64,000 nucleotides of DNA from Dictyostelium discoideum (GCA_000004695.1 CM000152.2:5088001-5152000), one strand, 5' to 3'. Numbered from the stretch's first letter, positions 3,808 to 63,854 are shown. The notes: generated by a model from the letters alone, not told the origin. Numbers and translations: made by a program.

Positions 3808-3808
<1 letters not shown>

Positions 3809-5614
3809 TAATCACTATCATCTTTAAAATTTGCCATTGGATCATCAGATCTTTTTCTTTTTAAATTATAAGCTTCCATTTGTTCCTCTGATACATTATA
3901 ATCATCAGCAGATAATGAATTATATTTAATATTTCTTTCATCTTTTTCAACTGATTTCTTATTTTCTTCATCTTGATCTTTTAATGCTTTTTTTAATTTT
4001 TCTTCTTTTTCTTTTCTTTCTTTTTTATCTTTTCTTTTTCCTTCTTTTTTATTATGTTTATCATTATCTTCATTTGATTTATTTAAATGTTGTTCTAATA
4101 ATGAGGTTGTGGTGGTAGTAGTTGTAGTTGTAGTATTATTATCGTCATCATCTTGTTGATTTTCTTGTTGTATATGATGTTGTTGTTGTTGTTGTAATTG
4201 TTTTTCACGTAATAATTTACCTTTTTCACCTGTACAATAAGCATTTTTAATTAATTGTCTGCAACAAGCGAAACCCCATTGACCATTTTCCCAATATGAA
4301 CCCCAAATTGATTTATGATTATTTAAAAATACATCCTCTTCATATTTTGATTTTACAATTTTCTCTTCACCCTTGATTAATTTACCAGAGGAACTGTATT
4401 CGGTGTAAATTTCCGATTGTGGTACTTTATCGATTTCCTCCTGTTTCAAGAGATGTTCTTCACCACCATATTTAGTTAAAAGTTGATTTCTAGTTTGTTG
4501 TTTTAATTGTTCTTTCTTTCTAAGGAAATCGGCATGTAAGAGGGCAGCTTGTGATGGTGCACTAGAGATATCGACATCTTGACCCTTTTCTTGTGCTTCC
4601 CAAGCGAATCTTTGTAAATCTCTAAACTCTTTAGTCTCACCACTTGTACGTGCAAAATTATCACCAGCAAATTTAATATCGTTTGGATTTGCATTAGGTA
4701 ATGGGTTATCTCTCATTGAACGACTCTTTGGTTCGTAGAATGCAGAGTTTACATCTAAATTATACAAATATTTTGCAGTATCTTCACGAATTCTAAGATT
4801 TCTAATTGTGGTTCTTGACTTTTGATCTAATTTTTGTATTGGTGCAACGGTTTCACTATCATATGATCCCTCCTTCTCCTCATTATCCATCAATTCTTTT
4901 GATAATGTTTCATCAACATCAGGTGTCTTTTTATCACCACCACCACCATGTTGTTTAATTAATTCTTGTAGTTTCTTTTTCTTTCTTTCTGTATCTGCTT
5001 TTTCATAGATATCCATCACCTCTTTGTATGAGGATGGGTCGTAACCATTGTATGGATCACGTTTACTATCATAATCCAATTCTAACTTTTGAATGACCTC
5101 ATCTGGTTTTATATCATCATTTGTAAATTTTGCACCCAACTTTCTTGGACGCTCACAACAATCTTTGGTTTTATGAGTCATTGCACCACAATTTTCACAT
5201 GCACCTTTTCTGAATTTGGTTGCTGCTTCACCAGTGGTTGCACCTCTTAAATACCATCCTTTATCCATCTCCTTCTTTGTAACACCACGTTGATGTTTTA
5301 AACTTGGTTTATTTGCATTTAAATACCATGGTGCTTTAAGAATATACTCTGGAATATGTGGATTAATCTCTTTACCCTCTTCATCTAACTCTGCTGGTGC
5401 ATTACCAGCTTTTCTTGCTTCATCTAATTCTTTCTCTTTCTTATACTCATCTCTTGTTTTTCTATGACCTTTTTTTTAAAAGAATAATAATAATGTTAAA
5501 ATCTTTTTTTTAATAATATAAAAAAACAAAAAGAATAAAAAAAAAAAATAATAATTTATTATATTATTATATAATAAATTAATTAAATAAATACTTACTT
5601 ATTGACGATGCCAT
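3808..5614 (-). CDS. slu7: Pre-mRNA splicing factor SLU7 homologue (2 exons)
   Basis: Exon 1 is 5599-5614 (ATGGCATCGTCAATAA, MASSI) and is followed by the donor GTAAGTAT. The intron is 5469-5598. Exon 2 is 3808-5468. The CCHC zinc knuckle KGACENCGAMTHKTKDCCERP is present. Conserved SLU7 blocks include NAPAELDEEGKEINPHIPEYI, RNLRIREDTAKYL, YEEDVF.NNH..IWGSYW..G.WG..CC and a C-terminal ...KRKR.DDPMANF, co-linear with metazoan SLU7. Confidence 0.9.
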
Positions 5615-20422: not shown

Positions 20423-21952
20423 TTAAACAACTAAATCGGCATATCTTTTATCATTGATTGCAGCTTCCATTAAATCCTTTGGAGTGATGGAAGAGGATTC
20501 ACCAGTTTCAATGACAGCTTTTAAGATTGATGGTGAGAAACCAGAGATTAAACCAACACCTTCAGTTTTTGAAGAGTCAGTAACACCACATTGAGAGTTA
20601 CCATTTACATTCCAGTAAATGAGTTGTGGTGGGACGTAACCAGCATCTTTGTATTGATCAATCATAGCATCATGGTTGGATTTCTTTGAGTATTTTCCAT
20701 CGGCAGTATCAAAAGCCATATCAGAGATTACGAATAATTTCTTTGGCATATCTTCTTGTGGCAATTTATTTTGTTTGGCTTTTTCCAAGATCATCTCGAA
20801 AGCACGGTTAAAGTTTGTTGAACCACCCCAAGGAGCAGCAGCTAAATTTGAAACTTTATCACGTAAAGAATCACCTGTGACCTTGTGGAAAGTTGGTGTT
20901 TCATGGAAAGTGATAACTAAATCTTTGAATGGTGGTGCGACAACTGATGAAATCAAGATACCGAGTGCAATTGAAACTTCCATTGGTGTACCACTCATAC
21001 TACCAGAGACATCACTGAGGACGAGAGCATCCTTGAGGGAACCTAATTTTCTAACTTCTTGTTCCAATACTTTCCATTGCTCTTCGAGGATGTCATCCTT
21101 TGCAATACCTTTGAGATATTCCTTAACGATCTCGTGTGGGAACAATTGTTTAGCGTTTACTTTGGTTTCACCCTTCTTTAAGGATTCGATATATTCAGCG
21201 AATAAACTTGGTTCATGACGTTCGAAAGCTTTACGTTGTAATTTCATACAACGTGATGGTACCTTTGAGTAACTAATTTCATTCCATTGGTTGGCAGACA
21301 TTTTACGTTCTACAACATCGAGATGTTTTCTTAATGGTACTAAATAATTCTTTCTATAGTCTTTCTTGGCGGTGGATTTATTGGCAGAAAGTAAGAGGGC
21401 AATCTTTTTACAGGCTTTTGATGAGGTTGGATCAGAGTGACCTTCAGTTGGTGCCCATTTTGCAGCTAATGAAATCTTGGCCTTCTCTTGATCCTTTGAT
21501 AAACTTTCAACATCTTTTTTCAATTGGGTGGTAATTGACTCCAATGCTAATGGCTCAACGGTGGTACCAATTAATTGGACGACATCTTTCCATGATCCAA
21601 ATTCTGGTACATGTTTAAAGTTTTTCTCAACAGTGCTTGGTGATACACCATTCATCCATACCAAACTTTGTTGGAAAAGGGTACGTTCACCTTTACCACC
21701 ACGACAATCACGTAATTGGAATACTAATTTCAAGGTATCCAATGGTGATACTTCCCAAGATGCTTGTAAAAGTTGATTCAATTCTCCTTGTTCTAAACCA
21801 CGTGCTGACTTGAAGAAAAAGTTAACTCTTGCGTCATCTGTACCTGCTGGTGTATTTACATGTTTTGGGAATACTTTTGCTACTTTAGTTTTCTTGTTTG
21901 GACCATGTTTATATTTTTTACCCAATGATTTTGATGAAGCTGATGATGACAT
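20423..21952 (-). CDS. vWA-domain protein with a MIDAS motif, DUF2828 / TROVE-vWA-like family
   Basis: Single exon, with an ATG at 21952. The upstream part of the computed ORF is poly-F from the A-rich promoter. The MIDAS motif is LVLSDVSGSMSGTPMEVSIALGILIS, followed by a second-site AAPWGGSTNF. Overall the protein resembles plant and amoebozoan DUF2828 proteins. Confidence 0.7.
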   Translation of the reverse strand: MSSSASSKSLGKKYKHGPNKKTKVAKVFPKHVNTPAGTDDARVNFFFKSARGLEQGELNQLLQASWEVSPLDTLKLVFQLRDCRGGKGERTLFQQSLVWMNGVSPSTVEKNFKHVPEFGSWKDVVQLIGTTVEPLALESITTQLKKDVESLSKDQEKAKISLAAKWAPTEGHSDPTSSKACKKIALLLSANKSTAKKDYRKNYLVPLRKHLDVVERKMSANQWNEISYSKVPSRCMKLQRKAFERHEPSLFAEYIESLKKGETKVNAKQLFPHEIVKEYLKGIAKDDILEEQWKVLEQEVRKLGSLKDALVLSDVSGSMSGTPMEVSIALGILISSVVAPPFKDLVITFHETPTFHKVTGDSLRDKVSNLAAAPWGGSTNFNRAFEMILEKAKQNKLPQEDMPKKLFVISDMAFDTADGKYSKKSNHDAMIDQYKDAGYVPPQLIYWNVNGNSQCGVTDSSKTEGVGLISGFSPSILKAVIETGESSSITPKDLMEAAINDKRYADLVV

Positions 21953-22360
21953 TTTATAAATTGTTTTTAAAAAAAAAAAAAAAAAAAAAAATTTGTTTGT
22001 GTGTGAAAAAAAAAAAAATAAAATAAAATAATTGAAAAAAAAACTGAAAGATAGCAAATTGAAAAAAAAAAAATTAAAAAAATCTTTAAGTACATTTTTT
22101 TTTTTTTTTCAAATCGGATTAAAAATGAGAAAAAAAATCGAATCAATGGTGGTTCGTTGAATTAATTTTTTTTTGAATTTTTATTTTTATTAATTTTTTA
22201 TTTTTTTTTTTTTATTTATTTTTGTTAAAATTAAAATAATAATTTATAGAGATTGTTTATCTCTTTCTTGTTTATTTTATCAAAATAATAACTTTTTTTT
22301 TTTTTTTTTTTTTTTATTTATTTTCTCAAAATTAATTAATTATCCAAAAAAAGTTATTTG

Positions 22361-23690: not shown

Positions 23691-24757
23691 TTCTTTTTTT
23701 TTTATTTATTAATTAAAAGAGAATTATTCAAATAAAATTTCTTTTAAATACACAAGAAAAGTTTTTTTTTTTTTAAAAATAATACAAAAATAATTTAAAA
23801 TTAAATTTTATTAAAAATAAAATTATTTTGAGGTTAGTTTATTAAAGATACTTTTTAAATAGGTTGAAATCAAAGAAAATCACATTTTTTTTAATATGGG
23901 ATTGACTTAAAAAATTAAAAAAACATTGATGAGTTTGATTTTAATTTTTTTTTTAAAAACAAAATCACTCTAAAAATTCCATAAAAATTTTTTTTTTTTT
24001 TCATTAAGGAAATAATCTATTAATCATTAAATTTTAAGTGCTCTAAAAATAAATATTTCCAATAAAAAACAAAAAAAAGAAAATTTTTGATTAAAAATTA
24101 TTAGTGTTTATTAATAGCACAATAAAAAATTTATTTTTGATACAAATTTTTTTTTTTTATTACATAAATGGATAAAGATTGAGTGTTTATGTGGTTTTTT
24201 TATTGGGGTAAAATAATTAAATATCTTAATAATTTAAAAAAAACACAAAAATAAAATTAACCAATTTTTTTAATTAAAAAAATTAAAAATTAAAAATAAA
24301 AAATCTATTAATTTAATTTATTATGTACTTTTTATTATTACTAGTTATTTTAATTATATTCTTTGTATCATTCACTTGTGAAAGTTAAATAATTTGAAAA
24401 ATACTCTGATTCATCGCTTTATTCTTCCTCCAATTCTGGTTCAGTGCCAGATGATATTTAAATAATCTCTCATTCTTGTGTTTAAATCAGGTTTTTCTAT
24501 ACTTGATTCAAATGATATATTATCAATCTCTTTTTCTTCTTTTTCACTGCAACTTTTTTTTTTTTTTTTTTTTTCTTTTTATCTTTAATTTAATAAAGAT
24601 CGCTAAACTTGAAAAATTAGAAAATTCTATATTTCAAATCATATTTATACTCAATTTTCTAATTTTTTTTTTTTTTATATTTTTATATTTTTATATTTAT
24701 TTATTTAATTTAATTTATTTATTTAATATTATATATATGTTAAATTTTTTTAAAAAT

Positions 24758-27700
24758 TTAATTTTTAAAACCACCAACTAAGATTGCTTTACATTGTTTT
24801 GCTCTTTCTAAGAAAAGAGAAGATTCATTTGGAAAACCTCTTTCAATTAAAAAGTTTGCATAAGCGGTTAAACAACGATAATTATTTGAATCAGCTTCAA
24901 GAGAACGAAGGAAATAATCTTCAGCTTTTTCATAACGTTCACAACGAACTAAAAAGTTTGCATAAAAGAAGAGAATGAGGGGACCTTTAGTATCGGCATC
25001 GATAGCACGTAAGAAATAACGATCAGTATTTACCACGACACGATCAGACATTGAAAATCTAACATTGGACATATTTTTACCTTGACTTGCACTAAATTCC
25101 AAAATTTTACACCAAGCTTGAGCACATAGTTGTAAGGTTTCCTTATTGTTTGGATTTGAAATTAATGCCAATTCAAAGAATTTTCTAGCTTTATGTAATA
25201 AATGAATGGCGGTACCAATTGAACGTTCAGTCATTGCTTTAGCATAAAAGAAGGTACCTTCAGCATTTGTAACCAAATCAGTATGTTTAACACGTACACC
25301 AATCTTTTTCAAATCACTAGTATCGAATGGTTGATAATGATTCCAAAGATTTGATTGAGTATCGGCCACTTTTTCAATGGTTTTCTTTCTAAATTTCAAA
25401 TGAGTCATATCTCTGAATCTAGTGAACAATAAATGACGACCAATCACTGGATCATAATTGTTACCCTCTAGTTTCTCATAGAGAATTTCTTGAAGTTTCC
25501 AACCATTTGTACTTGCTTGTTGTTGAGCTTGTTGTTGAGCTTGTTGTTGTTGTTGAGTTTGAGTTGATTGAATAGTTGGTGATGCTGGAGCCAATGGATA
25601 TTGAGTTGATTTTCTAATACCACCATCTTTTGACGATGGTGTTGTCGGATATCCACTACCACTATTATTTAAATTACCATTTCCATTGGTTGTTAAATCT
25701 AAAACATTATCACTACTTGTATTTGTACCTAAACTACCACTACTACCATTCTGTTGTTGTTGTTGTTTATGCATCGTTAAAACCGTTGGAATATTAATAA
25801 TATAGAATTTTGAAGCCAATTCATTCTTTACTGTTACATTCCAAAATTCATTAGTATCGAAATCTGTCAATGTTGAAATACCAAAAACCATATTTAAGAA
25901 TTTAGTTGTCAAATCAATATAAGGTGCTGATAAGGGTTGATTATAACGTTTCATTGCACTTCTTAATCTTCTACGTAAATCATTTTTAAGTACTCTTGCA
26001 ATGGCTTCGATGAGTAGTACAAAGCAAGCATCTCTATCATCCATAATCACCAACATATGACCTATCCAACGCATATTAATACCTTGTCTATGGAATTGTT
26101 CTGGAATATGAACATCACCAGTCAACAAAGTACCATTGTTTAGTGATTCTTTAATCATCCACTTTAGACGAACTGATAGACGTGGAATTAACTCTGTTAA
26201 CAATCTATTGGAAGCTTCTTTTACCTCTTGATTATGAATCAATCTATCTTTATCATTCTTTATAAAACCACTGAATGCATCGGAGCATAATGGTTTTGGA
26301 TGATTCTTTAGGAACTCTGGTCTAAACAATTGGAATAAATGACCACCTGGTACATTTTCATCTGGATAAGTTGGTGGAAAGGTACGAGAGAAATCTATTA
26401 AATAAAATCTACCATCGGTACCGATATGACCTTCGATATCTGTGGCGGAATAAAGTAGAGTGGGTGGAACTGATGTACCACCTAAATGAGGTTTCAAATT
26501 TAACATTTGTGATAATGAATGCATAATTGGTAATGCTTTTTCATTTGCATGAACTGTTTTACCCATATCACTTGAACCATAGACGATAGTTGATTTTTCA
26601 CCACTTGAAATGATTGGTAAGTAGCTCATTGCAATCAAACGGAAACCCATAAAATCTACTAAAGCCATCAAAGGTACACAAAGACCACCGATTGGACAAT
26701 TTAAAGTTGCCATACAACCTTTTAATTCTTGACCACCAACTTTTGCTCCACCCCATTCATCATAAACATTTGAACTTCCAGAGAATTTAAAGAGTACATT
26801 TCTTACAATATATTTATCACCACCTAAATGACCACCAATTGAACGACTTTGAATGGTTTTCTCTTTTAAATAACGTTCTTCAATGATAATTCTACCATAG
26901 GTTTTGACAGTATGTATAAAATCTTGAGAAATATGTAATAAATCTGTACAAATCTCTTGTAAGCGATAAAGATTTGTATCCAATGATGGAAATTCTCTAA
27001 ATCTAAGTACAACTTTTTGAAATCTTTCATTCAAATCTGATTCATCATCTAATTTAGATTCATCATCATCATCTTCTTGTTTATTTTTTCTTTGATTTGT
27101 TGGTGATGATGAATTTGGTGTTAAATTTCTATTGCTATTGCTATTGCTATTATTGGATTGTTTATTTTGTTGAATTTCATATGGATCAATATTATCTGGT
27201 TGTTGTAATAGTTTATCACTACTGTTTGATTTTATATCATCTCTTAATGGTTGAGAAGTTTGTTTATTATTACTACTATTTACACTTGTTATAAAATTAC
27301 TTTCAGCTCTATTTAAAACCCTATCACCACGAGACGGTGATTGAATTGAGAAAGTGGATGTTGATCTATGAATTGTTTGCTGTCTAGATTCTTCATTCTC
27401 TGAATCGTACTCTGATAAATCATCTCTATCATAACCAGAAATAATCGATTCAGTATCATATGGATTTTGATTATTTTGATTTGGTGAATTTGGATTATCT
27501 ACAGCTGAAAATATTGCCATTGAATTTGATGATAATGACATTCCAGTCTTTGCTACACTATTAATATTTAAAAATCCATGTTGTTCACCAACTACACTTG
27601 TATTCATATTAGCTCTATTTAATGTAAAATTATTAACAATTGCTATTGGTTTAGTAGTTCCATTATTATTATTATTATTATTGTTATTATTATTAATATT

Positions 27701-27842
27701 ATTATTAATATTATTATTATTGTTATTATTATTATTTTCATTCATATTATTTAAAAATGCATTTAATTGAGAATTTAATGTTGATGCTGTCACTGTTCGA
27801 GTTAATGTTGGTGGTGGTTCAACAATTGTTACATTGTTATCA

Positions 27843-27907
<65 letters not shown>

Positions 27908-29448
27908 TTTATTATCATCATCATCATTATTATTATTATTTTCATTATTATTAATATTATTAATAATATTATTATTGTTATTATTATTATTGTTGTTTTG
28001 ATTATTACTAATGGTTATATTTGATTGCATTATACCACCTAAAACTACACTATTACCACGATTAATTGGATCTCTTGAAGTTGGAAATGCTTTATTAAAA
28101 CCAATTCCATTCGTATTGTTTATAATATTATTATTATTATTACTATTATTATCAATTGGTTGTATAGTTGTAGAATTAACAATAGAAGAAGGTGTTGGAG
28201 GAGGTGGTTCTCTTGGTAATGCACTTGAATGTCTTAAACTACTTTTAGAAGCAATACTTGGTAATACTTCCAATGTATTACGATGCCAATTTTTTTGTTC
28301 GTCTTCAGAAGGTTGAAAGCCATAGGCCTGATTATAGGCATTGTCATAATCAACCTCTGGTGATGGTGACGATGATATCTTTATTGGTGGTTGTTGTCTG
28401 AGTTGATCTTGTTGAGATTGCGTTGGTGGTGGTGGTGGTACAGGTGTTATAAATGATGGTGTTGATATTATAACTGGTGATCTATTAAGTTGTTGTTGCT
28501 GTTGCTGTTGCTGTTGTTGCTGTAGTTGTTGCTGTAGGTCATATTGATGTTGTTGAGCTTGGGCTTGAGCCAATTGCTGAGCCAATTGTTGAGCCTGAGC
28601 CTGTTGTTGTTGAAGATTTAAAGCATTTACATAGTTATGTAAATTATTTATATTAGTACTACTATTTAAATTGAATGGTTGATTTACAGATAAGGAGGAA
28701 GAGGTTGGAGTTTGTGGTGGTTGTAATTGATTATTGTTATTATTATTATTGCTATTATTATTATTCGTTGATGATACAGTTGATGTTGTGGTTGTGGTTG
28801 TAGTTGTAGTTGTTATGGATATAGTATTTATATTTGTGCTACTACCATCAAGGGTTGGTGAAGTTGAAGTTGTATTTAAACTATTTGCAACTTCATTTGA
28901 ACAAACCCTATAATAATTGATTCTTCCATTTGAATCTTTAAACGGAGGTCTTGATGGGAATGGTACACTAAGAATTTGATGTCTTCTTCTTTTGAAATTT
29001 TCTTCGGTCGTTGTTGGTGTATTACCAATGCTACTACCACTACTACCCATACCATTATTAAAAAACCCACTATCCTTTATACTCGTGGTACCATTGTTAC
29101 CATTATTATTTGGTAAAAATGATGAATTTAAATTTATTGGTAAAATATTTTTTGGTGATGTCACACCTTTTGCATTTTCTTTCTCCTTTTCTTTTTCTCT
29201 TTCTTTTTCTTTCTCTTTCTCTTTTTCTTTTTCTTTTTCTTTTTCTTTATCTTTTTCTTTATCGCCTGAATTTTTTAAATTTTTAAATACACCTTTCTTT
29301 TTAATTGATCCATTACTATCATTTTTATCATTTTTATTGTTACCGCTGTTATTATTATTATTGTTATTCATGTTATTATTATTATTATTACTACTGTTAT
29401 TATCAGTATTGATATTATTATTATTAATATTATTATTACTACTACTAC

Positions 29449-29529
<81 letters not shown>

Positions 29530-29538
29530 TAATGCTAC

Positions 29539-29605
<67 letters not shown>

Positions 29606-29672
29606 GTTGTTATTATTAATGCTATTAGTGTTATTATTATTATTATTACTATTATTATTATTGTTATTGTTA

Positions 29673-29748
<76 letters not shown>

Positions 29749-30171
29749 TATTATTATTATTTATATTGTTACCGCTATTATTACTATTTATACCGCTCGT
29801 ACTATTTTCGTTTATATTAATATTATTATTATTAATAATATTATTATTATTCGTATTATTCGTATTATTATTATTATTTATATTTATATTATTGTTAACA
29901 TTATTATTATTAATGCTATTAGAATTATTAGAATTATTATTTACACTCGAATTACTTGAAGTTAATAGATTACTGCCGCTACTAGTTGATGATACACTAT
30001 TAACACTACTAGCTAAACCACTATTACTATTTACACTCAAGCTATTGCTATCTTGTTCTCTTAAGCCATTACTGCTTAATAGTTGATCCCTATTCGAACC
30101 ACCACTTATACTTCCACTAAATATATAATGATTACTAGAATTTAATGGTTGTAAAGATGGTGATGATGAAC

Positions 30172-30223
<52 letters not shown>

Positions 30224-31163
30224 GCTATTGTTATTATTATTATTATTATTATTATTGCTATTGCTATTACTTGAAGATGAAGAAAAAAATTTATTAAAAA
30301 GACCTTTTTCTTTCTTTTTTGGATCCTTTTCTTTCTCTTTCTCCTTTTCTTTTTCTTTTTCTTTCTCTTTTTCCTTTTCTTTTTCTTTACCTATATTATT
30401 GCTATTGATTAAATTCATACCACTACCACTACCAAAACTACCACTATGATCTCTTTTAGAAGATCTTGCAGATGGTGATGATACTGACATAGTTGTAGTA
30501 CTATTTGTTGATGACGACGATGATGATGTGATTGTTGGTGTTATTGAATTATTACCAACCAAACCAAACTGGTGTGGTGTAATAATCATTTTTGCAATTG
30601 TAAGGAATATTAAATCTATATTTTCATTTCTTAATGCTGAACATTCAATACCAATAAACTTATTTAATAAACAAAAACTTCTAACCATTTCTGGTGGAGT
30701 CTTTTTCTCTAAATCTGATTTACATCCAACAACTAATATAGGTGTATTTACTGGTACATATCTTTTGGCCTCTATTGACCATTTTGATGTTATCTTTTCA
30801 AATGATTCTCTATTTGATGAATCATAAACAATAATTAATCCTTGTGCTCCTCTTAAAAAAAAAAAAAAAAAATTAATTAACATTTTTATAATATTTTTAA
30901 AATAAAAAATTTAAGCTTACTTGTAAAAACTTGATGTTAAATTTGATATTTTCTCTTGCCCAAATGTATCCCCCTATAATTAAAAAATAAAAAAAAAATA
31001 AAAAGTTAAAAAAATGACTTAATTATAGTTATAATTTTATTTTTTTACATACAATTTGAAGTTTATGTGATTTACCAGCAACTTCTACTGATTTAAATTT
31101 CTAAAATAAAAAATTAAATAAAAAAAAAAAAAAAAATAAAGTTAATTTCTTATTTAAAATAAA

Positions 31164-31223
<60 letters not shown>

Positions 31224-31385
31224 TATAATTATAATTATAATTATAATTGTACATACGGCTTCAAGAAGTACAGTTGGTTCATTTGGATTAAAAACACCAT
31301 CAGTGAACCTTAATAATAATGATGTCTTACCAACGCCATTATCACCGATAATCAATATTTTTAAACTTTTGTCTAGTTGTTGCAT
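24758..31385 (-). CDS. Giant (~2,100 aa) Ras/Rab-like GTPase fused to a CLU-homology domain and TPR repeats; 4 exons
   Basis: Exons are 31257-31385, 31053-31100, 30921-30973 and 24758-30851. G1 is IGDNGVGKTSLLLRF, G3 is GDTFGQE, G4 is VVGCKSDL, and a SAL/SAK-type motif ECSALRNENI follows. Low-complexity regions are a (GAGAAA)n EK-repeat, (AAT)n/(AAC)n poly-N and (CAA)n poly-Q. The CLU-type core is HIGTDGRFYLIDFSRTFPP. The C-terminus carries TPRs (YRCLTAYANFLIERG, YEKAEDYFLRSLEAD). Confidence 0.7.
29440..29760. repeat. Long (ATT)n / (AAT)n coding microsatellite: poly-Asn tracts of the GTPase-CLU gene
   Basis: About 320 bp of near-pure ATT on the plus strand, equal to AAT codons on the minus strand. 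Rare ATTG or GCT interruptions occur. Confidence 0.9.
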
Positions 31386-33102: not shown

Positions 33103-34056
33103 ATGGAAAATATTAAAACTATTAAAGAATATATTGAAATTGGTAAAGATAGAAGTGGTAATAATTCACCAATATTTAAATTATATTATGAAAGTTATGG
33201 TGAAATTGAAGCACCAATTAAAATTATATTCATTGCAGGATTTATGTCAAGTGGGAAGAACGATTATTATAAACAAGTGGAATATTTTATGAAACAAGAA
33301 CTTGTTAATAAATGCTACCAAATTGTTATATTTGATAACCGTGGTTCTGGCAACTCTGGCACTCCCAATAAATTTTCAACATTCGATATGGCATTGGATA
33401 TGATAGAATTAATGGACCATTTAGGATGGGACTCTGCACATGTCATCGGTGCGTCCATGGGCGGCATGATTGCGTTGGAATTGGCAACGGTTATACCCCC
33501 ACAAAGAATTCGCTCACTTACATTAGCAGTAACCCACGCAGGCCATACAATTACACCCATCAAAGGTACAAAAGCAGTAACAAAATCAATTTTCACATCT
33601 GATCCAATTAAAAAATCACAAATTACAATTGATTCGTTATATTCCAAAGAGTATTTATCGAAATTGTCCATCGAAGACCCAAGTAGGTCAAATAAAGATG
33701 TTTTGACAGACATTTTCGTCGACAGATTAAAAACCTCAAAAAAACCATCACTAAATGCAATTATGGGTCATTTTAAATCAGTGTTAACTCATTACATATC
33801 TGAAACTAAATTAAAGTATATTAGTAATCAAGAATTTCCAATACAAATAATCACTGGAACAAATGATCATTTAGTTGATCCAAAGAATTCGTTTTATTTG
33901 AAATCCAAATTAAATCCTTGTGAATTTACAGTTTTTCAAGGTTGTGGTCATGCTGTAAATACTGAAAGATTAAATGATTTTAATAATTTAATTCAATCCC
34001 ATATAAATCGTTTTATACCTGATCATAATATTTTAAATCAATATTTAAAAAAATAA
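33103..34056 (+). CDS. Alpha/beta-hydrolase fold protein (317 aa)
   Basis: Single exon. The nucleophile elbow is GASMGG, preceded by VIFDNRGSGNSG (HG/oxyanion region). The late conserved block GTNDHLVD...GCGHAV is consistent with the Asp/His of the catalytic triad. Confidence 0.8.
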   Translation: MENIKTIKEYIEIGKDRSGNNSPIFKLYYESYGEIEAPIKIIFIAGFMSSGKNDYYKQVEYFMKQELVNKCYQIVIFDNRGSGNSGTPNKFSTFDMALDMIELMDHLGWDSAHVIGASMGGMIALELATVIPPQRIRSLTLAVTHAGHTITPIKGTKAVTKSIFTSDPIKKSQITIDSLYSKEYLSKLSIEDPSRSNKDVLTDIFVDRLKTSKKPSLNAIMGHFKSVLTHYISETKLKYISNQEFPIQIITGTNDHLVDPKNSFYLKSKLNPCEFTVFQGCGHAVNTERLNDFNNLIQSHINRFIPDHNILNQYLKK

Positions 34057-36820: not shown

Positions 36821-37936
36821 ATGTCAACATCAAAAGAAGTTTTTAATAATTCAAGTGATTGCCAAAATGAATATGATTTATTATTTAATAAATATAATAA
36901 TTTATTATTGGGATTAAACAATGGAAGTGGGAGCGGTAGTAGTGATGAATGTTCAAGAGACTCAAATATTGAATACACAAGACCACTTCATATTGGTGCA
37001 ATTTTTATAATTCTAGTTGCTTCTTTTATTGGAACTGGTTTACCAATTTTGGCAACAAATATTAAAAAATTCCAAATTCCAAATTATTTAATTATTTTTG
37101 GAAAATCAATTGGTATTGGTGTAATATTAGCATGTTCTTTAATTCATATGTTACAACCAGCAGTTGAATCTTTATCATCACCATGTTTACCAGAGTCGTT
37201 TACAGAGGATTATGAAGCGTATCCATATCTATTTGCATTATTAGCTGGCATTGTTATGCATTTTTTTGACTTTTCATTTTTATCATATATTATTTATAAA
37301 AATAATAAAAAACTAAAAAATTCAAATGATAAAATTTCAACATCTTCTTCAAATGGGTTAACACAAAGTGGTAATGAATTAACAAATTCTTGTAGTGGAG
37401 GCGGTCATTTACATGGTGGATTAATATTAATGAATTCAGAATCTTTAAAAACAATTGAAGCTTATTTATTAGAGTTTGGTATAACTATGCATTCAATATT
37501 TATTGGATTAACTGTGGGTGTTGTTGATGATATTGGTTTAAAGTCTTTACTTGTTGCACTTTCATTTCATCAATTTTTTGAAGGTGTTGCTTTAGGTTCA
37601 AGAATTTCAGATGCAAACTTAACTTCCCATTGGCATGAAGCACTATTAGCTAGCATTTTTTCATTTTCTGCCCCAGTTGGAATCGCTATTGGTATTGGCG
37701 TTGTTTCATCAATAAATGTAAATGGAGAAACTTTCTTATTCGTTCAAGGTATTTTCGATGCTGTTTGTTCTGGAATTCTTTTATACATTGGATTTAATTT
37801 GTTATTTAAAGATTTTCCTGAGGATATGGAGAAAACTTGTAATGGTAAAAAACATCAATTCATTTTAAAAATGGGTCTTTTCTTTGCTATTTGGTTAGGT
37901 GCTGGATTAATGAGTTTTATTGGTAAATATTTATAA
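36821..37936 (+). CDS. ZIP (ZRT/IRT-like) metal-ion transporter
   Basis: Single exon, 371 aa, 8 predicted TM helices. ZIP signatures are LEFGITMHSIFIGLTVGV and the TM5 motif HQFFEGVALGS. A variable cytoplasmic loop includes a histidine cluster (GGGHLHGG). Confidence 0.85.
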   Translation: MSTSKEVFNNSSDCQNEYDLLFNKYNNLLLGLNNGSGSGSSDECSRDSNIEYTRPLHIGAIFIILVASFIGTGLPILATNIKKFQIPNYLIIFGKSIGIGVILACSLIHMLQPAVESLSSPCLPESFTEDYEAYPYLFALLAGIVMHFFDFSFLSYIIYKNNKKLKNSNDKISTSSSNGLTQSGNELTNSCSGGGHLHGGLILMNSESLKTIEAYLLEFGITMHSIFIGLTVGVVDDIGLKSLLVALSFHQFFEGVALGSRISDANLTSHWHEALLASIFSFSAPVGIAIGIGVVSSINVNGETFLFVQGIFDAVCSGILLYIGFNLLFKDFPEDMEKTCNGKKHQFILKMGLFFAIWLGAGLMSFIGKYL

Positions 37937-38145: not shown

Positions 38146-38218
38146 CACCCATTGTGGGTCTCGATCCCACGACCTGCAGCTTAGAAGGCTGCCGCAATTC
38201 CAACTTTGCTAAACGGGC
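38146..38218 (-). tRNA. tRNA-Arg (anticodon UCU), 73 nt, intron-less
   Basis: Reverse complement: GCCCGTT-T-A-GCAA-AGTTGGAA-TTGC-G-GCAGC-CTTCTAA-GCTGC-AGGTC-GTGGG-ATCGAGA-CCCAC-AATGGGT-G. The acceptor stem is 7 bp with two G·U pairs. The D-loop carries AGTTGG. The anticodon loop is C-U-UCU-A-A. The T-arm is GTGGG/CCCAC. The T-loop reads A54...A60 rather than the usual T54. Confidence 0.8.
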
Positions 38219-44436: not shown

Positions 44437-46280
44437 TTACCATGAACCTTCACTTCCACCATTTCCACTACCCCAATTACTACCACCATTATTACCATAA
44501 CCACCACCACCACCATTTCTATTACCCCAGCTACCACCGCCGCCACCACCATTTCTATTATTACCCCAGTTACCACCACCGCCACCACCATTTCTATTAC
44601 CCCAGCTACCACCGCCGCCACCACCACCATTTCTGTTATTACCCCAGCTACGGCCACCACCTCTACCACCACGACCACCACCACCATATCTAGAGATACC
44701 TTGTCTTGAGTGAACAGCGAATTTCTCTAAGAAATCTGGGATCTTTTGATTGGTTCTTTGTAAAATTTTAACTAAATCACGGAGGTTTGGTGTTTGGGTA
44801 GTAACATAAGACCAAGCGTCACCGGTCTTTCCAGCTCTTCCAGTTCTACCAATACGATGTACGTAATCTTCAATGTTACCTGGTAAACGATAATTGAATA
44901 CAGCTTTAACTGATGGAATATCAAGACCACGAGCAGCAACATCTGTTGCAATTAAAATACGAATTCTATGATCTCTAAAAAGTTTAAGACCAGATTCACG
45001 CATACGTTGATCTAAAAATAAAATAAAAATATAAAGTTAATATAATATGTTTTTTTTTTTTTTTATAAATATATAAACTTAATAAAATAATTACCTTTTC
45101 CACTATGTAAAACAATTGATTTAACATTTTTTTGAGTTGATAAATAATGTTGGAAATCATCACATTTATATTTTTCATTACAGAAAACAATGACAGTATT
45201 TGTTGGATCAGCGGTGAGAATTTTATTAATTTCATCATAAATGAGATCATCAGATTGGAGATCGGATAAATCATCAATATTGACAATATGTTGAGTTACA
45301 TTGATTGAACCAGTTAATTCTTGACTACCAACGGTGATTTTAATTGGATCTTTTAAGAATTTTGAAGCGAGTAATTTGACTTCTTTTGGCCAAGTTGCAG
45401 AAAACATGAGTGTTTGACGTTCTTTTGGAATTTGATCAATGAGTGATTCAATTTGAGGCATGAAACCCATATCCAACATACGATCGGCTTCATCGAGAAC
45501 TAAATATTGAACAGATGATAAATGATGTTTTCTCAAGAGATCATTGAGACGACCTGGTGTACCGATGACAATGTCTACACCATTACGTAAGATTCTGGAT
45601 TGATCGATTTTACCTAAACCACCATAGGCGCAAAGTTGACGAATTGAAGTACCACGAATTGATGTTTTACAGACTTCTTCGATTTGTTGTGCCAACTCTC
45701 TAGTTGGTGCCATAACGAGTACCAATGGGGTGGCACCGTAGGATGGACGTTTTGGAAGTGAAATGATCTTTAATAATGCTGGTAATAAGAATGCCAATGT
45801 TTTACCTGAACCAGTTGCTGCTAAACCAACCAAATCATTACCTCCTAAAATAATTGGCCAACTTTGACCTTGAATAACAGTTGGTGCTGTAAATCCTTGG
45901 AAAATATGTTGAAACATTCGTGGGAATTCATAATCTGTAAACTTTTGGAATGGGTTTGGTTGTGATTTACCCTCAATTAAAACATTATGTTTCTTTCTCC
46001 ATTCAGTTGGACTTAAAACAATATCTTCTTTGGTTTCTTCTTTAACTTCTTCTTCTTTATCCTCTTTTGATGATGATGATTTCTTTTCAGATTTCTTTTC
46101 TTCAGATTTACTGGACTTTTTAATTGATTTTGATTTTGATTCAACTTCTGAGTCTGATGATGATGATTCGTCTGATGATTCGTCACGTTTACTCATTTTT
46201 AATTTTTTTGAACTTGATTGTTCAACTTTAACTTCTAAACTTTCATCTTCTGTTTTTCTTTTACTTGATGTTGAAGGCAT
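44437..46280 (-). CDS. DEAD-box RNA helicase, DDX5/DDX17 (p68)-like (2 exons)
   Basis: Exon 1 is 45095-46280 and exon 2 is 44437-45011, with an 83-bp intron at 45012-45094 (G|GTAATT ... TTAG|). The Q-motif is [14 protein letters not shown]. Motif I is AATGSGKT, motif Ia is PTRELA, and motif II is [26 protein letters not shown] and ARGLDI are also present. The C-terminus carries [15 protein letters not shown] repeats of 36-42 bp. Confidence 0.9.

Positions 46281-49845: not shown

Positions 49846-63854
<14,009 letters not shown>

Follow-up and report, generated by a model that had tools for sequence, protein, structure and literature searches.

A conserved dictyostelid gene joining a Rab-like GTPase to CLU, eIF3_p135 and TPR domains in Dictyostelium discoideum, most probably comB

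Introduction

Proteins with a CLU domain occur in several forms in Dictyostelium. Alongside a separate cluA, Sugden et al. 2010 (PMC2906285) define CldA, which has an SH2 domain, a Clu domain and TPRs, and CldB as Clu-domain proteins, and they report that both bind LrrB in a phosphotyrosine-dependent manner and that cldA- cells misregulate the same genes as lrrB- cells; the paper also mentions ComB, which it describes as a predicted Rab GTPase with a Clu domain. In Dictyostelium discoideum the name stands for communication mutant B, for which Sugden et al. (PMC2906285) cite Kibler et al. 2003, and comB- mutant expression profiles are described as displayed at dictyBase (PMC2686522). Here we analyze a gene on the minus strand, from start codon to stop codon at 24758..31385, of a window of 64,000 nucleotides (nt) of the D. 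discoideum genome (GCA_000004695.1 CM000152.2:5088001-5152000); the window is that whole stretch, and positions are counted from its first letter. The gene encodes a predicted protein of 2,107 amino acids (aa), and its features are consistent with a conserved dictyostelid gene of the order Rab-like GTPase, CLU, eIF3_p135 and TPR that is most probably comB, a reading to which we assign a probability of about 0.8.

Results and Discussion

Four exons, all on the minus strand, join in frame to a coding sequence of 6,324 nt with 2,107 codons. Exon 1 (31257..31385, aa 1-43) carries the ATG at 31385, the G1 P-loop GDNGVGKT (31323-31346; aa 14-21) and the switch I Thr; exon 2 (31053..31100, aa 44-59) lies between a TTTTAG acceptor and a GTATGT donor and is gapless at its junctions against the orthologues and Ypt1; exon 3 (30921..30973, aa 60-77, with the last codon partial) holds G3 as G-DTFGQE; and exon 4 (24758..30851) lies inside an open reading frame (ORF) of 2,041 codons that ends with the stop codon at 24758-24760. 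The three small AT-rich introns are all GT..AG, with donors GTATGT, GTATGT and GTAAGC and acceptors TTTTAG, TTATAG and TTTAAG. The window has about 13% GC between genes and coding repeats rich in AAT/CAA, a composition typical of dictyostelid genomes, and at the local base composition the chance probability of the large ORF is about 10^-83. Alignment of the G domain to Ypt1 and to the orthologues is gapless at every exon junction, which supports the splice sites independently, and since a single uninterrupted ORF covers both the CLU domain and the half of the G domain that carries G4 and G5, the fusion itself does not depend on the prediction of introns. The model could be mis-joined, with the GTPase exons making up a small Rab gene of their own and the CLU gene lying downstream as a second, unconnected gene, and the first half of the G domain does require removal of the three introns. 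However, exon 3 ends in mid-codon with no stop, Ras profile positions 68-160 fall in the same ORF as CLU, three orthologous single-gene models have the same order, and an independent gene call covers the whole region. Two separate genes are effectively excluded by these observations. The two outcomes named in advance as going against the original prediction, GTPase exons in a gene of their own and a CLU region lacking similarity to PF13236, thus both turned out in favor of the fusion. Judged by reading frame and comparison, the locus is one gene and the gene model is sound, as the original prediction had it when it joined the GTPase exons to the large exon; the ends that it gave coincide with the start and stop codons.

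The spliced N-terminus matches Pfam Ras PF00071 over profile positions 1-160/162 with E=1.4e-38. At the start of exon 4, the remainder of the G domain (aa 77-170, 30572..30851) contains G4 as GCKSD (30713-30727) and G5 as ECSAL (30632-30646), so that the large ORF by itself still gives Ras positions 68-160 together with the CLU domain. There follows a low-complexity linker (aa 186-1338, 27068..30526) of EK repeats, poly-N and poly-Q, in which about 1,150 residues with 32% Asn separate the G domain from the CLU core. The CLU domain (aa 1349-1571, 26369..27037) matches PF13236 over positions 1-222/225, and this strong match (E=5.6e-50) bears out the CLU similarity first read from the sequence; it includes a Gly-rich loop, GGHLGGDKY (26810-26836), and a DIEGHIGTDGRFYLIDFSR motif (26384-26440). 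Beyond it lie an eIF3_p135-type helical segment with a profile match (aa 1661-1736, 25874..26101), a domain also found in the orthologues, and a conserved C-terminal helical region (aa 1857-2107, 24761..25513) with TPRs at aa 2021-2096 (24794-25021). Scored on isolated segments rather than on the whole protein, these matches are marginal: eIF3_p135, after CLU, reaches 23.2 bits against a cut-off of 22, and at the C-terminus TPR_17 and TPR_14 reach 27.4 against 24.4 and 25.7 against 23.5. All four families that had been proposed for a profile check (Ras, CLU, eIF3_p135 and TPR) are thus matched, and every motif quoted from the sequence (GDNGVGKT, DTFGQE, GCKSD(L), EK repeats, poly-N/poly-Q, IGTDGRFYLIDFSRTFPP and the C-terminal TPRs) is present.

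An exhaustive representative search with the C-terminal 769 aa as query recovered 4,177 relatives, among them orthologues from three other dictyostelids: Tieghemostelium lacteum KYQ93681.1 (P0036; 1,723 aa, 82% identity), which is named 'Rab GTPase domain-containing protein', Synstelium polycarpum EP01133_P016333 (P0037; 1,402 aa, 75%) and Acytostelium subglobosum XP_012751068.1 (P0038; 1,543 aa, 74%). These identities cover the C-terminal 769 aa; in whole-protein alignment the orthologues are 35-46% identical overall to the window protein. Each has full-length Ras, CLU and eIF3_p135 matches in that order, followed by TPR matches in the Tieghemostelium and Acytostelium proteins. Within the linker, three short islands are conserved in all four dictyostelid orthologues, at aa 696-726 (28904-28996, minus strand), aa 911-932 (28286-28351, minus strand) and aa 1181-1197 (27491-27541, minus strand), the second of them tyrosine-rich with the pattern AYNxAYG[FY]. 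One might speculate that this second island is a phosphotyrosine/SH2 docking site. The window protein ends in ...VGGFKN and the orthologues in ...VGGLK at the same end position. In addition to this shared C-terminus and the islands, all three orthologues share CKxD at G4 with the window protein, but they differ from it in having shorter linkers (total length 1,402-1,723 aa), Trp where it has Gly60, and a different residue at the position of Ras Ala59. A protein of Acytostelium (P0012) encoded directly downstream of a TOG/CLASP gene was considered as an orthologue and set aside as a paralogue with no G domain. Uniqueness of the fusion was also entertained and abandoned: a word-indexed search with the CLU region had given only GTPase-less relatives of 35-50% identity and had missed the orthologues of 74-82% identity, and that impression was overturned because the exhaustive search recovered them.

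Conservation of the fusion, which the original prediction had proposed to look for in other Amoebozoa, therefore extends to the three other dictyostelids sampled, with one Rab plus CLU orthologue per species. The accompanying statement that no protein of this domain order had been described does not hold, given ComB in Sugden et al. 2010 (PMC2906285), the three annotated orthologues and a metagenomic relative (P0148) carrying the Joint Genome Institute name 'Clustered mitochondria/Ras family/eIF3 subunit 135'. The Rab-CLU fusion is already known: it is conserved, annotated in related species and was in print in 2010. As a gene architecture the locus adds little, coming as it does from a model-organism genome with annotated relatives and that earlier mention. 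The window gene is most probably D. discoideum comB, because the published description matches and because one Rab-CLU orthologue was found in each of the three other dictyostelids sampled. Like the window protein, ComB (PMC2906285) has a Rab GTPase and a Clu domain, and there is no known difference between them in a comparison made by description only.

Several observations weigh against this identification or against details of the model. First is that a literature search gave no comB sequence or gene identifier, so that identity with comB is reached by inference, and that exact look-up of the 2,107-aa model in a protein collection returned no record. Secondly, the gene model is drawn from genomic sequence and comparison, and another assembly of the same species, GCA_054883475.1 (CM142509.1), disagrees with it at one end. 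That assembly is 99.9% identical to the window and has a single gene called from the same ATG and spanning the whole region, but the call has 2,140 residues and another 3' end (window 24441-31385, ...IIWH*), running 317 nt beyond the stop codon of the 2,107-aa model. Repeat-length polymorphism was rejected as the source of the longer call because the two regions are equal in length with one mismatch. Exactly 2,140 aa could not be reproduced, the three introns plus one 3' GT..AG intron giving 2,089-2,147 aa. The C-termini of the orthologues back the stop at 24758-24760 rather than the 317-nt extension.

By comparison with solved structures, the nearest relatives of the G domain are Ypt1, Rab1, Sec4 and Rab11 (E about 1e-33 to 1e-28), and on this sequence similarity it is a Rab-family domain closest to Rab1/Ypt1. 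Against the RabF motifs (IGVDF, KLQIW, RFRSIT, YYRGA and LVYDIT), with the alignment read by eye, KLQI(G/W), FYKGA and IVYDSS are recognizable and VLLEA and KISNLT have diverged. Across the four dictyostelids the G1 P-loop GDxGVGK[ST], the switch I Thr and the catalytic Gln are conserved and G5 is ECS[AS]; G4 is CK[SC]D in four of four, a lineage-conserved CKxD in which Cys replaces Asn and the guanine-specificity Asp is kept. There is no C-terminal Cys prenylation motif in the protein, which continues for about 1,900 residues beyond the G domain to its ...VGGFKN end, and in the absence of such a site the domain cannot be that of a classical membrane-anchored, membrane-cycling Rab.

G3 had been described as lacking the canonical Trp-Asp, which is correct for the Trp and incorrect for the Asp, as G-D-T-F-G-Q-E retains it and with it the DxxGQ pattern. 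Moreover, the missing Trp comes down to one base. Over the 6,945-nt gene region the window and GCA_054883475.1 show exactly one mismatch, at window 30973, with which exon 3 begins; there the window has G (GGG, Gly60) and the other assembly T (TGG, Trp60) within the WDTxGQE motif, and Trp is present at this position in every orthologue. The atypical G3 is thus mainly a single-base allele or assembly error, and the reading of G3 as atypical is to that extent not supported. Gly60 may reflect an error in the assembly, a mutation in the laboratory strain or a polymorphism; if real, Trp60 and Gly60 would be two natural alleles with which to ask whether the G domain is important.

Several features count against nucleotide binding. 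Phe occupies the Ras Ala59 position of G3, the conserved Trp of G3 is Gly in the window, the Asn of G4 is replaced by Cys, and in the Acytostelium orthologue, with WNTCGQE, Asn stands for the G3 Asp. The same substitutions would be expected of a pseudo-GTPase, a G domain that does not cycle and that, constitutively bound or empty, would act as a structural or targeting module of a static scaffold. The position equivalent to Ala59 seems unconstrained (F/S/L/C), Cys replaces the G4 Asn in all orthologues, and in a more distant metagenomic protein with a Ras-like domain and CLU (P0082) DxxG has clearly been lost. A non-cycling module is plausible, if on the whole somewhat unlikely: P-loop GxxxxGK[ST], switch I Thr, catalytic Gln, the Asp of KxD and the SA of G5 are kept in four species despite the low overall identity, and an Asn-less first position in G4 is tolerated in Rho-family GTPases, which have TKxD there.

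Canonical CLU proteins (Dictyostelium CluA, yeast Clu1/TIF31, Drosophila Clueless, human CLUH and Arabidopsis FRIENDLY) have CLU, eIF3_p135 (CLU-C) and C-terminal TPRs, placed relative to one another as they are in the window protein. They differ at the N-terminus, where CLU_N and GSKIP are replaced here by the Rab-like G domain and the disordered linker of 1,150 aa; with E allowed up to 1 for the large ORF and up to 0.01 for the spliced N-terminus, Pfam matched neither CLU_N nor GSKIP. The earlier observation that canonical CLU proteins have no GTPase in this place is consistent with that finding. Comparison of sequences assigns the window protein to a separate Cld-type subfamily, so that it is not a canonical CluA/CLUH orthologue. 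The nearest relatives constitute this group, whose members add varied modules to a CLU core, an eIF3_p135 segment and a brief stretch of TPRs: WD40 in P0039, C2 in a protein of Phalansterium (P0074), Mob1 in P0046, and DEP and PH in a protein of Planoprotostelium (P0084). P0176 is also among the protist proteins that join the CLU, eIF3_p135 and TPR core to other signaling modules. The pattern suggests that CLU, eIF3_p135 and TPR form a widely reused core taking interchangeable signaling modules (Ras, SH2, WD40, C2, Mob1, DEP/PH). CldA and CldB resemble the window protein in being non-canonical CLU proteins with abundant simple-sequence repeats, and CldA also in its C-terminal TPRs; their role lies in signaling and gene regulation and not in mitochondrial dispersal (PMC2906285). 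CldA differs in having SH2 instead of a G domain and CldB in having no other recognized domain, and both bind LrrB, whereas no ComB-LrrB interaction has been reported.

This placement bears on the function first proposed for the protein, a CLU/CLUH-type scaffold for mitochondrial distribution and mRNA binding under GTPase control. In favor of such a role, the protein has in common with canonical CLU proteins a central CLU domain, an eIF3_p135 segment and TPRs at the C-terminus, and some of the conserved residues of the core are retained in a canonical-type relative (P0034). We regard it as quite improbable all the same. CLU_N and GSKIP were not found by Pfam, and the closest relatives are Cld-type proteins with other signaling modules rather than CluA-type proteins, for which reason the picture of a GTP-controlled mitochondrial scaffold is not supported. 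Dictyostelium has its separate cluA, and in the lrrB mutant, which lacks the partner of the paralogue CldA, no mitochondrial clustering was seen (PMC2906285). Other non-canonical CLU proteins, such as FLAM3 and the Toxoplasma conoid proteins, are cytoskeletal.

In the predicted protein a Rab-type G domain, its nucleotide-binding motifs largely intact, is tethered by a disordered linker to a module of CLU, helical and TPR parts, and the whole is most probably a large cytosolic multidomain signaling or scaffold protein. The G domain may act as a built-in GTP/GDP switch, a mechanism that we consider possible and well short of probable. By conjecture, in one nucleotide state it would dock on its own CLU/TPR module or on a partner, through a putative contact, and this docking, for which the three conserved islands of the linker might supply the motifs, would control the scaffold's binding. 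The output would be developmental signaling and not mitochondrial distribution of the CluA type, by analogy, because the paralogues CldA and CldB act in SH2/phosphotyrosine signaling and gene regulation and because of the name communication mutant.

The central CLU domain was still described as uncharacterized in a 2026 preprint, and here it gave a structural lead. An AlphaFold2 model of aa 1339-1772, built with 23 sequences, has a predicted local distance difference test score (pLDDT) of 87 and a predicted template modeling score (pTM) of 0.86, and Foldseek with this model returned two CLU-type matches, after which every match was to a kinase and none of these had a significant E-value. Among about 135-180 relatives per position, conservation is 85-100% for a set of polar residues: G82, G83, K85, K94, K109, E114, D138, G141, R143, H194, D210, E212, H214, D218, Y222, D225 (in 'DFS'), R228, R249, E251 and D263, numbered in the modeled piece, to which 1,338 is added for protein numbering. 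P0034 keeps most of these residues but not E212 or H214 of the Cld-type core. A suggestive pattern is formed by the conserved Gly-rich loop, the Lys, the Glu and D...DFS; its spacing is not that of canonical kinase motifs, and Pfam gave no kinase family match to the core at E up to 10. Resemblance of the predicted CLU core to protein-kinase-like folds is accordingly offered as a lead, not as a result. A bolder reading takes the Gly-rich loop, Lys94, Glu114, Asp210-x-Glu212-x-His214, Asp218 and Asp225-Phe-Ser as signs that the Cld-type CLU core may be an unrecognized protein-kinase-like domain, nucleotide-binding and possibly catalytic. ComB-type proteins would then be ROCO-like signaling enzymes of G plus kinase-like type, and the central domain of CLUH/Clueless a degenerate relative of an enzyme fold. 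On the predicted model, we think this distinctly unlikely. No paper linking CLUH to a kinase-like fold was found in a literature search. We know of no published mechanism for ComB or for the CLU central domain.

The likeness to ROCO proteins (LRRK2 and the Dictyostelium Roco family) is one of analogy only. They too contain a Ras-superfamily G domain inside a large multidomain protein, here beside a predicted kinase-like fold, and a Roc profile matches the G domain at 81.8 bits, weaker than Ras. ROCO proteins, however, combine a Roc G domain with COR and kinase domains, whereas the window protein has a Rab-type G domain, a long disordered linker and no canonical kinase domain. COR gave no Pfam match anywhere in the protein, and membership of the ROCO family was rejected because COR is absent.

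The nearest solved structures to the CLU core are chains EA and JA of PDB 9ya0, which are the Toxoplasma pre-conoid ring components CGP (TGME49_240380) and PCR10 (TGME49_298010). FLAM3 of trypanosomes is likewise among the proteins listed as having a Clu domain, and cytoskeletal assemblies are thus a repeated setting for non-canonical CLU domains.

Elsewhere in the window, a Tra1/TRRAP homologue occupies 50427-63854 on the plus strand over three consecutive ORFs (50427-53672, 53881-61896 and 61893-63854), with Pfam matches to Tra1_central, Tra1_ring and FAT and none on the third ORF. As the third ORF overlaps the second by 4 nt and has no Pfam match, there is probably an intron or a frame change at that point. 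The remaining neighbors are ordinary genes; those on the minus strand are Slu7 (3808-5268), a DUF2828/DUF7788 protein (20423-22057), tRNA-Arg(TCT) (38146-38218) and a DEAD-box helicase (45063-46280), and those on the plus strand are an alpha/beta-hydrolase (33103-34056) and a ZIP transporter (36821-37936).

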